In this document: in pieces, positions 17,874 to 20,120 of the stretch
Numbering within the stretch: the first letter of the stretch is position 1
Layout of the letters: every line of letters begins with the position of its first letter
Virus record (IMG/VR): IMGVR_UViG_3300006141_000001
Strand: one strand, 5' to 3'
Origin: a virus
DNA length: 64,000 nucleotides
Position numbers and translations under genes: made by a program
Notes under the pieces: generated by a model
The model's input: only the letters and a program-made list of their open reading frames with translations
Told to the model about the DNA's origin: nothing
Database searches by the model: none

Positions 17874-18788
17874 TTAATTCGACATTTTATCAGCATAATG
17901 CATCAGCATTACATCCGACCACAGCTTAACTCCCCAAATATGCATCCATTTACTCATTGTCTTTACACCGTATTTCTTATCATTTTCCCAAAAATATGGG
18001 AACATATGCAAATTAACCAGAGTTGAAACATAAAGCCTATCAATATTTTCTGGATAAGAATAGAACAGGCTTTCATACGCTCCCACACAATGATGTTGAT
18101 AATAATGCGCTATTTCTGTTTCTTCTCCTTTACAATTCAAATATGATTTTGTAAATGGTTTTCCACAGTCATGTAAAAGGGCAGCATATTTTAGTTCCTT
18201 ATCGCTTCCGATTTTGCTCTCAACTGCTTTACAATGTTCCCCAAGAGCCATTGAATGATGTGGATTATTCTGGTCATAATTTGAATATTTTTCAACCCAA
18301 TCTTCAATATTCCTCCATTCTTGTCTTTTGTTAAATACAATTTTAATCTCATTCCACCCTTCAAACCAATATGGTGTGTTCCAGTTTTTATACATCTTAC
18401 AAATAACATCTTCTGGAATCACCCTGTCTCTTTGTTTATTCTTTTCAAGACATTCTTCAAATGGAGTGGCCATAATTACACATTTTTTAATGCATACAAT
18501 CCTCTCTAATTCTTTGAGGAATGCCCTACGCCTTTTTGAACTAATATTTGTGGCATCATATATTACATTACGCCCATTACTTAAATGTTCCTTAATCCTC
18601 CTATGTAATGTTAAGAATACAACCACATTTTTATCCTGAGAATTTACATCCCCATATAATTCTTTCCTAATCATATCCGAACTACAGATTATTGCATCCG
18701 ATTCTTCTGCTATTTTTTCTGCATAGGTAGATTTACCAGAACCTGGCAAACCTACCATCATGATAAAAGTTGGTTTTACGTCATTCAT
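17874..18788 (-). CDS. Polynucleotide kinase (P-loop) fused to an HD-domain phosphohydrolase. Putative RNA 5'-kinase with 3'-phosphatase or cyclic-phosphodiesterase activity.
   Basis: Walker A MMVGLPGSGKST as in T4 Pnk, and a C-terminal HD motif AALLHDCGKP. Confidence 0.7.
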   Translation of the reverse strand: MNDVKPTFIMMVGLPGSGKSTYAEKIAEESDAIICSSDMIRKELYGDVNSQDKNVVVFLTLHRRIKEHLSNGRNVIYDATNISSKRRRAFLKELERIVCIKKCVIMATPFEECLEKNKQRDRVIPEDVICKMYKNWNTPYWFEGWNEIKIVFNKRQEWRNIEDWVEKYSNYDQNNPHHSMALGEHCKAVESKIGSDKELKYAALLHDCGKPFTKSYLNCKGEETEIAHYYQHHCVGAYESLFYSYPENIDRLYVSTLVNLHMFPYFWENDKKYGVKTMSKWMHIWGVKLWSDVMLMHYADKMSN

Positions 18789-20120
18789 TTATAATCAACT
18801 CCTCCGCTTCTTCCATATCTGGGGCATCTGCACTGTCTTTAATAATTCCTTCAAGGACTTTAAAGCTAAAATTTTTATGTTTATATGCCTTAAATGTTTC
18901 CCTATTGTCAATCCTCACTACAACACCTTCCCTTACATGTGTCTTTCCAATCGGGTCTTCCCCATCATAATATTTTTCTACACGTTCCATTAAATCTTCC
19001 CATGTAGTAAAGACAAACTTTTCAAATGTGGGAACGCATTTAACTCCTAATTTCTCACATTCAATTTGAACTTGTTCCCATGGAATTTCTACAGTAAACC
19101 CATCTTCTCCTGTCATAGTCATACGATACACATAAATATCGTTTTCTCCTGGCTTACATCCATATGAAAATACCGTTTCTTTCCCATACTTCTTCTCAAA
19201 TTCCTTATCTTTTACTTTTTTATTGGAACATCTTCCCATTATTGTTTGGTCGCCTTCTGTATACCCAACAATTTCATAGAATATTTCTACTCCCTTGGGA
19301 AGCTTGTCTTTGAAGAAATTCTGATATTTTTCCCTGAATTTATTACTCCCATAAAATCCACCATTATAATCTTTTAAAACTTTCCTTCTAGTTCCGCTAA
19401 CAATCTTAAACTTACGAATTTCTTTATCATTCAGTTTGAATACTTTTTTTAGGAAAAGATTTCTTTTTCTTTTTTTCACCTCAATAGCATTCGCCGTGCG
19501 ATTCGATGTTCCATGCATCTTCAGCGTTATATAGCAAGTATCTCCTGGCTTGAATGCATTTTTATTATATGCAAGTTGCTCTGTGTCGCTATGTTCTTTA
19601 AAGAATGGATACGAAATTATTTCCTTTTCATCTTTTCTCTTCTTTTTCTTGTTATCGTGTGTGGCATTACTTCTTCTATTTGTCTTTGGAATATACTTCC
19701 TGCAAATCTCATGTCCATTCAGGACAGAAACTTTATCACCGTCAGATAAGGTTTCAATATCCACATATTTTCCCAACCTTTCGATTGGCAATACCAATCC
19801 ATCTGATTTCTCACCCCTTAATTTTAAAGCAGTAATATTCCTTTTGTTGGGGTCAAGATAACCACCAACATTATTCCCATCTCATCTTTTAACCTGACAA
19901 GATTATTCTCAATGGCAAATTCTTCACTTAACTGCCCATCTACAGGGAAATAGACTACTCTTTGTCCTTCTTTATACGATAAATCTACGATTACGTTATT
20001 TCCAAAAACTGTTGCGCATAACAACCTATCTGCATTACTATGCTTTCTAAGTTCTTTAATTGTTGTTATGTATCCACAATACCCATTGATAATATTCTGT
20101 TCCATTTCGCTTACCATCAT
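18781..20120 (-). CDS. ATP-dependent RNA ligase (Rnl2 or nick-sealing type) with an N-terminal OB-like module. It is interrupted by a 1-nt frameshift near 19840.
   Basis: Downstream ORF: motif I LKMHGTS (KxHGT as in T4 Rnl2), IFYEIVGY, EGVVVRID and KAYKHKNFSFK (motifs IV and V). Upstream 98-aa ORF: ITTIKELRKHSNADRL..GQRVVYFPVDGQLS, resembling the N-domain of some RNA ligases. The frames join as ...KDEMG/NNVGGYLDPNKR... Confidence 0.6.

Follow-up and report, generated by a model that had tools for sequence, protein, structure and literature searches.

Phages use RNA repair as a counter-defence, directed at host nucleases that cleave tRNA and rRNA. In phage T4, Pnkp and the RNA ligase Rnl1 make up an anti-PrrC system, in which Rnl1 repairs the cleaved anticodon loop of tRNA. 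We know of very few phages outside T4 in which RNA repair has been characterised experimentally. Here we describe a two-gene cassette in the IMG/VR virus record IMGVR_UViG_3300006141_000001, analysed as one stretch of 64,000 nucleotides (nt; hereafter the window). The cassette pairs a predicted polynucleotide kinase–HD phosphohydrolase fusion (Pnk-HD) with a putative ATP-dependent RNA ligase, and the two probably form a heal-and-seal RNA-repair system.

The end-healing activity of HD-Pnk has been characterised biochemically for the enzymes from Runella and Deinococcus (PMC6097658, PMC6300522). We liken both to Pnk-HD by their published descriptions. According to the summary of Munir & Shuman 2017 in PMC6097658, Runella slithyformis HD-Pnk combines an HD 2',3'-phosphoesterase and a P-loop 5'-OH polynucleotide kinase in one polypeptide, and the gene for this enzyme overlaps at its start with the open reading frame (ORF) of an ATP-dependent ligase immediately upstream; the window resembles it in both respects. 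The Runella ligase differs, being presented in that summary as an enigmatic protein that adenylylates but does not seal the test substrates. The Runella cluster also includes Tpt1 and MTase-HIT genes, which were not found in the window. In Deinococcus radiodurans, HD-Pnk (DR_B0098) and the founding Rnl5 ligase DraRnl (DR_B0094) lie near each other on the same replicon (PMC6300522, PMC4408790), which again recalls the window. However, the Deinococcus genes belong to separate operons, HD-Pnk is paired there with an ATP-dependent DNA ligase, and the physiological link of HD-Pnk and DraRnl is to radiation and DNA-damage resistance. In addition, the domain order differs from both bacterial enzymes, since the window protein carries its kinase at the N-terminus and its HD domain at the C-terminus.

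Two further systems share only parts of this design. The phosphatase of T4 Pnkp is a DxDxT HAD domain, whereas that of the window protein is an HD domain; T4 seals with Rnl1, which is specific for the tRNA anticodon loop, in place of the Rnl5 type found here, and the two T4 genes are not adjacent. Among kinase domains, that of Clostridium thermocellum Pnkp (CthPnkp) is the nearest by sequence as well as by structure, but CthPnkp also has a calcineurin-type phosphoesterase and a ligase as parts of its one polypeptide and works with a Hen1 methyltransferase partner, features that the window cassette lacks; no Hen1 was detected among the window ORFs scanned. The cassette thus stands outside the T4-type Pnkp and Pnkp/Hen1 systems, and by analogy it would be functionally similar to T4 Pnkp plus Rnl1 and to Runella HD-Pnk plus ligase. 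RNA-repair systems of this kind have already been surveyed by comparative genomics.

The cassette comprises the following features.

17874..18788, minus strand: Pnk-HD gene, 304 amino acids (aa), predicted bifunctional end-healing enzyme (ORF, Pfam, NCBIfam, AlphaFold2)
18324..18788, minus strand: kinase domain, residues ~1-155, with P-loop G13-LPGSGKS-T21 and predicted catalytic D38, R41, D78 and R120
17877..18296, minus strand: HD phosphohydrolase domain, residues ~165-304, with H178, H185, H206-D207, H232, H261 and D300
18781..18788, minus strand: 8-nt ligase/Pnk-HD overlap ATGAATGA, containing the stop codon of the ligase and the start codon of Pnk-HD
18781..19875, minus strand: ligase part 3' of the frameshift, with the last part of the N domain, then a basic linker and the nucleotidyltransferase domain (PF09414, phrog_968)
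19876..20120, minus strand: ligase part 5' of the frameshift, with most of the Rnl5-type N-terminal OB-like domain (PF21189)
19876..19878, no strand assigned: frameshift site, plus-strand CCC (coding GGG), where relatives have four bases (contig alignment)

A preliminary description of the locus, made from the letters of the sequence, had proposed a polynucleotide kinase-HD fusion beside an RNA ligase. All the motifs it quoted are present at the coordinates it gave, and family searches agree with it; the pairing is borne out by profile matches, conserved residues, the 8-nt overlap and gene neighbourhoods. In particular, AAA_33 and RNA_ligase (PF09414) are matched, HDIG scores above its cut-off, and Pfam HD falls 0.3 bits under its own. 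The ORF at 17874..18788 (minus strand) contains both GLPGSGKST and LLHDCGKP. Its kinase half matches Pfam AAA_33 at E 3.7e-24, and the AlphaFold2 model of the whole protein has a predicted local distance difference test score (pLDDT) of 85.9. The nearest kinase relative, by sequence and by structure, is the CthPnkp kinase (PDB 4gp7, E 2.2e-13), with which the P-loop, SSD38xxR41, D78-ATN and the NKxRxR lid are aligned. Among 49 diverse members of the family, conservation is at least 90% for kinase residues G13, G18, K19, S20, S36, D38, R41, D78, N81, R87 and R120. The bacterial Pnkp model TIGR04075 scores 58 bits against a cut-off of 750 and covers the kinase part only (model positions 9-136).

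The same protein could in principle serve nucleotide metabolism, as a nucleoside or nucleoside monophosphate kinase joined to an HD deoxynucleoside triphosphatase or nucleotidase and perhaps tied to a PurZ-like gene. AAA_33 and HD are generic families, weak adenylate/cytidylate kinase matches do occur, and the PurZ-like gene at 35744..36976 could be a sign of unusual nucleotide metabolism. Among the structural neighbours of Pnk-HD, polynucleotide and RNA kinases are closer than nucleotide kinases, and we consider a role in nucleotide metabolism very improbable.

The C-terminal half of Pnk-HD matches HDIG (TIGR00277) with 29.8 bits against a cut-off of 27.6, and Pfam HD matches 37 of the 49 family members at E <= 0.01. 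The set H...HD...H...H...D is complete, and each of H178, H185, H206-D207, H232, H261 and D300 is either invariant or reaches 90% conservation or more in alignments that include the 49 diverse representatives. This half weakly resembles the HD region of class II CCA/A-adding enzymes (TIGR02692, E 1.9e-5; PDB 3wfp, E 0.78). In the CCA-adding enzyme from Escherichia coli, the HD domain strips 2',3'-cyclic phosphates from tRNA ends, as reported in PMC6961547 citing Yakunin et al. 2004. Scans with Pfam and NCBIfam found no HAD or PNK3P family match in Pnk-HD. Pnk-HD also matches phrog_6931 in two stretches. The kinase part of that profile is at the C-terminus (positions 181-340 of 343), which suggests that this family may be a Pnk-HD relative with permuted domains. 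Taken from its sequence, the product of 17874..18788 appears to be a P-loop kinase fused to a C-terminal HD phosphohydrolase, and it probably acts as a 5'-OH polynucleotide kinase and end-healing phosphohydrolase.

The two genes are closely coupled. A GGAGG Shine-Dalgarno sequence lies 9 nt upstream of the Pnk-HD start, and the 8-nt overlap with the ligase is kept in relatives whose Pnk-HD is 57-59% and 99-100% identical; the gene layout marks the ligase and Pnk-HD as a predicted translationally coupled pair. Orthologues annotated 'RNA ligase' and then 'polynucleotide kinase' are adjacent in the same order in Tsamsa-like Bacillus siphophages (vB_BcoS-136, Kirov, PBC2, Thrax1/3), where the ligase is 52-57% and Pnk-HD 33-37% identical. 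These phages infect Bacilli, as opposed to the Clostridia indicated for the window, and their Pnk-HD has a ~30-aa longer interdomain linker; their genes abut without overlap, and the KDEMGNN loop is missing from the ligase in two of three.

Co-occurrence of Pnk-HD with RNA ligases is also seen among more distant relatives, sampled as 17 full-length Pnk-HD genes of 30-51% identity from Bacillota genomes and one Bacteroidales metagenome-assembled genome (MAG). An RNA ligase adjoins Pnk-HD in 13 of the 17 loci, distributed as follows.

Rnl5-like ligase beside Pnk-HD: 3 loci (L025, L032, L033)
Rnl1-like ligase (PF09511) beside Pnk-HD: 9 loci (L024, L027, L028, L030, L034-L038)
Compact PF09414 ligase beside Pnk-HD, 50% identical to the window gene at 3879..4502: 1 locus (L039)
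Ligase gene near Pnk-HD not detected: 4 loci (L023, L026, L029, L031)

Moreover, an RlaP-like gene lies directly upstream of Pnk-HD in two of these loci. In one of them, L023, no ligase was detected; in the other, L032, the RlaP-like gene sits between the ligase and Pnk-HD. No other computational evidence for healing of RNA ends by Pnk-HD is as strong as its pairing with three different RNA ligase families.

The ligase catalytic part, in ORF 18781..19797 (minus strand), contains LKMHGTS, EGVVVR and KHKNFSFK and matches RNA_ligase PF09414 at about E 2e-8 to 4e-8. The OB-like N-terminal module is encoded by a 98-aa ORF at 19824..20120 (minus strand). Joined across the frameshift described below, the reconstructed ligase matches phrog_968 'RNA ligase' (E 2.4e-70), and the PF21189 PHA02142 OB-fold scores 25.7 bits in it and 65.8 bits in the L025 relative. 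The fold was placed by searching a family profile against PDB sequences in place of an AlphaFold2 model. The sole significant solved family is the Rnl5 ligase NgrRnl of Naegleria gruberi (E 6e-21; PDB 5cot), and the match is collinear in three stretches, the N domain, the motif I region and motifs IV-V. The NgrRnl N domain (residues 7-120) is matched at a domain E of 3.6e-11 with the profile and at E 0.006 with the single sequence. The motif I lysine of K201-MHGT (codon 19519..19521) aligns with the adenylylation lysine of NgrRnl KLDGSS, and motif IV E398-GVVVR and motif V K414-H-K416 align with NgrRnl REGLVFK...FKA. The residues of motifs I, IV and V are invariant in three family alignments.

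The phage ligase ends 30 residues past motif V (K416 of 446) with an acidic, low-complexity tail and without a C-terminal domain, as in NgrRnl; the missing C-terminal appendage is a signature of Rnl5 (PMC4408790). It exceeds NgrRnl in length by ~100 aa, having a basic linker as well as insertions within its nucleotidyltransferase domain, and its family has Gln in place of NgrRnl Arg149. Because of this extra length and a score below the TIGR02306 cut-off, we classify it as a divergent Rnl5-type ligase of the NgrRnl/DraRnl kind, not an equivalog, which by its profile matches appears to represent a longer subfamily (phrog_968).

The reading frame of the OB module (ORF 19824..20120) is not that of the catalytic part (ORF 18781..19797). 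The preliminary description had treated them as one upstream gene; its domain assignments stand, but in the window that gene is split by a 1-nt deletion at 19876..19878. The upstream ORF continues out of frame to a stop at 19824, and the frame changes inside the coding-strand GAT GAG ATG GGA. Reading ...DEMG and then stepping one base back gives ...NNVGGYLDPNKRNITALKLRGEKSDGLVLPIERLGKY..., which is alignable with homologues. Where the window has GGG (plus-strand CCC), all seven metagenome contigs spanning the site (L004-L010) have GGGG. These contigs come from independent samples and encode exactly the same Pnk-HD protein; they are 99.6-99.97% identical to the window and carry the ligase as a single ORF of 445/446 aa. 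Three more contigs (L020-L022), seen by their encoded protein, also encode an intact 446-aa ligase, and the 446-aa reconstruction across the missing base is 100% identical to database protein P0121. In protein look-ups, no contig on record encodes a truncated 98-aa or 97-aa product. Since at least ten relatives are intact and the truncated product is found on no recorded contig, the split is specific to the window sequence; either an error was made in sequencing or assembling the homopolymer, or the gene was recently inactivated by mutation.

If the mutation is genuine, the ligase is a pseudogene in a decaying cassette, and Pnk-HD is orphaned or works with the compact ligase at 3879..4502. The GGG state of the window alone, against ten relatives that are intact, fits this account. 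So does an otherwise clean assembly, with one mismatch and a 1-nt gap relative to L008 over 5.7 kb, and a pair of Pnk-HD and compact ligase occurs naturally in the Paenibacillus locus L039. It has to be set against the facts that loss of a single base from a homopolymer is a classic sequencing or assembly error, that the truncated product is absent from the recorded contigs, and that neither Pnk-HD nor the rest of the ligase, identical in reconstruction to P0121, shows further decay. The window also has a second 1-nt deletion, at ~9017, relative to L004 and L005, although the L004 alignment is divergent there. We regard a genuine mutation as a sizeable, if minority, chance, and it is compatible with heal-and-seal RNA repair by the cassette. 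At the ~9017 site the window has T against TT in L004 and L005, the only contigs aligned there, next to a 90-aa remnant of a D12 methyltransferase (8740..9012, minus strand); this site bears on whether the window holds homopolymer errors.

A third account would keep the ligase alive through -1 ribosomal slippage on G_GGA, which would restore ...DEMGNNVGG... and place ligase expression under translational regulation. After reading GGA, a P-site tRNA-Gly could slip back by one base to pair with GGG, giving a product equal to P0121. The site lacks an X_XXY_YYZ slippery heptamer, however, and is unique to the window, all relatives examined having a plain continuous ORF; for transcriptional slippage, a run of three G is too short to be efficient. 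Such slippage is extremely improbable, and a programmed -1 frameshift or conserved recoding site was rejected on the same two grounds, the missing heptamer and the continuous ORF of the relatives. NgrRnl without its N domain performs neither adenylylation nor sealing (PMC4408790), so the window ligase should be dead if the deletion is real. Pnk-HD would then need the compact ligase at 3879..4502 or a host ligase. Users of the window sequence should take the ligase from the intact relative P0121.

With the gene intact, repair could proceed through steps drawn from characterised homologues, and they are therefore given here as a proposal. The HD domain, with a transition metal bound by H178, H206-D207, H232, H261 and D300, would open a 2',3'-cyclic phosphate and remove the 3'-terminal phosphate. 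The P-loop kinase would phosphorylate the 5'-OH, with K19/S20 acting on the nucleoside triphosphate, D38 as general base, and R41, D78 and R120. The Rnl5-type ligase, adenylylated on K201, would transfer AMP to the 5'-phosphate and seal the break between 3'-OH and 5'-PO4. RlaP, encoded nearby, could first replace a nucleotide lost from the 3' end. The domain identities, conserved residues, gene coupling, frameshift and conserved neighbourhoods are observed, and we give the heal-and-seal RNA-repair reading built on them, with its activities, substrate and role, a probability of roughly 0.7. For an anti-anticodon-nuclease role specifically, which is suggested by analogy with T4, we see about an even chance.

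Several points weigh against this reading. To our knowledge, there is no cognate host nuclease for the cassette. Pfam HD scores 21.7 bits on Pnk-HD, 0.3 below its cut-off of 22, and both fold searches with Pnk-HD listed kinase matches alone and no HD-domain match, so that the placement of the HD domain rests on its sequence. The ligase scores 48.3 bits against the 151.15 cut-off of TIGR02306 (RNA_lig_DRB0094) and matches model positions 6-174 only, and its AlphaFold2 model was poor and set aside (pLDDT 47.8, predicted template modelling score 0.34), having been built from a shallow alignment of sequences 72-83% identical. The broken ligase ORF means that the cassette may be non-functional in the window genome. 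Finally, characterised Rnl5 ligases seal duplex nicks in preference to anticodon loops (PMC4408790), and Rnl5 enzymes are linked to DNA-damage resistance, not to anticodon-loop repair (PMC4408790, PMC6300522).

The last point leads to an alternative in which the cassette repairs DNA or RNA-DNA hybrid breaks, Pnk-HD healing DNA ends with a 3'-phosphate and a 5'-OH and the Rnl5 ligase sealing RNA-3'-OH nicks, for example in ribonucleotide-patched gaps of phage DNA. Nick sealing by Rnl5 needs RNA only on the 3'-OH side, and one proposal gives these enzymes a role at DNA gaps patched with RNA (PMC4408790). In Deinococcus, mutants of rnl and of HD-Pnk show sensitivity to ionising radiation (PMC6300522), the title of the paper on the Runella enzyme, as cited in PMC6097658, calls it a DNA/RNA end-healing enzyme, and the Bacillus phage pair lies 2-3 genes upstream of an ATP-dependent DNA ligase. 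Other observations argue against it. Distant Pnk-HD genes pair mostly with Rnl1-type ligases (9/17 loci) and also with RlaP, which acts on RNA 3' ends (PMC12776372); the HD domain is most like the RNA 3'-end-healing HD of CCA-adding enzymes (PMC6961547), and the window also encodes a Thg1-like enzyme. DNA repair is thus an unlikely function for the cassette, and we retain RNA repair as the preferred one.

Three additional genes of the window encode RNA-related enzymes.

22770..23795, minus strand: RlaP-family nucleotidyltransferase (PF10127, E 1.2e-20; phrog_388, E 6.8e-48)
3879..4502, minus strand: compact RNA ligase, 207 aa, nucleotidyltransferase domain only (PF09414, E 7.1e-32; phrog_34045 and phrog_24030)
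49417..50268, minus strand: Thg1-like 3'-5' nucleotidyltransferase (PF04446, E 2.6e-28; phrog_4717, E 1.8e-89)

The RlaP gene is located ~2.6 kb upstream of the pair on the same strand, and likewise upstream in L016, L019 and L020. According to PMC12776372, RlaP extends RNA 3'-OH ends by 1-2 nucleotides, and the window protein is a probable accessory repair enzyme. A 322-aa ORF at 21800..22768 (minus strand), without a Pfam, PHROG or PADLOC match, abuts the RlaP gene, and the related contig L020 has a 67%-identical partner in the same position beside RlaP; the ORF may encode an uncharacterised RlaP-associated protein. The compact ligase, named in the preliminary description as an alternative sealing component, is plausibly a second sealing enzyme, judging from its PF09414 match and from its 50%-identical homologue directly downstream of Pnk-HD in the Paenibacillus locus L039. 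Its phage homologues are mostly from jumbo phages. It is flanked by a DHH phosphoesterase (2481..3410, minus strand) and an Rv2179c-like 3'-5' exoribonuclease (5008..5580, minus strand), and the genes at 2481..5580 may form a second small RNA-processing cluster. The Thg1-like protein might repair tRNA 5' ends; its gene lies far from the cassette in the window and is linked to it by theme only. Together, RlaP, the Thg1-like enzyme and the compact ligase strengthen the RNA-repair reading. Jumbo-phage RNA-repair toolkits include HD-like phosphatases, RlaP and Thg1 (PMC7824862), and the RNA-related enzymes of the window would match such toolkits by analogy. The sole tRNA in the 64 kb is a tRNA-Met (CAT) at 60591..60664 (minus strand).

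A calcineurin-like phosphoesterase at 40673..41200 had also been proposed as an alternative healing component. It was rejected as such, having generic Metallophos and phrog_547 membership only and no detectable RNA-repair link; its sole solved relative is the uncharacterised Aquifex protein aq_1665. It belongs to an NAD+ salvage cluster at 40673..44035 (minus strand), composed of an NAPRTase (42830..44035), an NAD synthase (41247..42032; PF02540, E 8.6e-51) and the metallophosphoesterase directly downstream. Elsewhere, the window encodes a YAcAr protein (24491..24907) and an ADP-ribosylglycohydrolase fragment (25054..25539) with the C-terminal half of PF03747 only.

The preliminary description regarded the kinase-HD fusion as an uncommon architecture, which the family searches contradict. 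The HD half alone, searched against 1.84 billion cluster representatives, has 1246 matches at E <= 0.001 and 496 at E <= 1e-10, the latter figure counting clusters at 50% identity, and the full-length search returns 2186 proteins at E <= 1e-5. Among the best 150 matches to the HD half, nearly all are proteins of ~290-330 aa with a C-terminal HD domain or fragments thereof, and the HD domain is at the C-terminal end in every full-length relative. An N-terminal AAA_33/KTI12 kinase is present in 47-48 of the 49 relatives checked by Pfam. In sequenced phages, 36 records contain the HD type of Pnk-HD, from large Bacillus/Lysinibacillus phages and human faecal phage contigs, and the annotated phage matches to the HD half, those of Bacillus phages included, are mostly labelled 'polynucleotide kinase'. 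Given these 36 records and the large family, the Pnk-HD fusion is therefore not rare and is already annotated. Kinase matches from acidobacteria and cyanobacteria were rejected as HD-Pnk, as they are stand-alone kinases of ~150 aa and one Pnk-Nudix fusion. A 310-aa Pnk-Nudix fusion of a Clostridia MAG (L041, 3995..4927) joins the same kinase type to another phosphohydrolase.

NUMOD4 and HNH_3 domains occur in some homologues of Pnk-HD (P0093 and P0107, 481 aa), and in the window the genes for RlaP and the ligase are separated by an HNH endonuclease gene (20686..21393, minus strand). This suggests homing-endonuclease traffic around the cassette. A more far-reaching proposal would make Pnk-HD a portable, ligase-agnostic healing module whose origin was separate from that of the characterised HD-Pnk enzymes, composed of a CthPnkp-like kinase and an HD 2',3'-cyclic phosphodiesterase of the CCA-adding-enzyme type. 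It would serve at least three unrelated ligase families and act as the hub of an unusually complete, multi-route tRNA-repair toolkit (Rnl5-type ligase, compact ligase, RlaP and Thg1-like enzyme), and the frameshift in the G run would be real on/off variation or loss of the Rnl5 arm. We hold this proposal to be doubtful.

Every gene of the 64-kb window is on the minus strand, and the G+C content is ~32%. Many window proteins match PHROG families, identifying the region as phage-derived. The names of close ligase homologues refer to Lachnospiraceae and Acetatifactor genomes, the contigs that carry such homologues reach ~280 kb, and the host setting of the cassette is a large phage or prophage of Lachnospiraceae-type gut Firmicutes. 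A megablast search of the locus against 50,697 phage records found no match, and the relatives were found by protein-level searches only. In a PADLOC scan the locus was not part of any defence system, and a promoter/terminator scan around the pair gave a result no better than chance. The protein at 57315..58715 (minus strand) has a GmrSD N-terminal domain (PF03235, E 3.3e-10; PADLOC NsnA, E 1.1e-8) and is a phage-borne defence-type nuclease-like gene product. The PurZ-like adenylosuccinate-synthetase homologue (35744..36976, minus strand) matches phrog_1211 '2-aminooxy adenylosuccinate synthetase' (E 1.8e-66) and PF00709 (E 1.6e-33), a hint of possible 2-aminoadenine (Z) DNA synthesis by the phage; the window ORFs scanned include no DatZ- or MazZ-like neighbour.

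The pair is ordinary in kind, its chemistry, operon logic and annotation being already known, and it introduces no new principle. New here are the ligase frameshift, the size of the Pnk-HD family and the partnership of Pnk-HD with three ligase families. The locus adds an example from a gut-Firmicute phage to the described cases of RNA repair. Our analysis highlights Pnk-HD as a large, uncharacterised family that occurs beside Rnl5-, Rnl1- and compact-type ligases and is a reasonable target for biochemical study.

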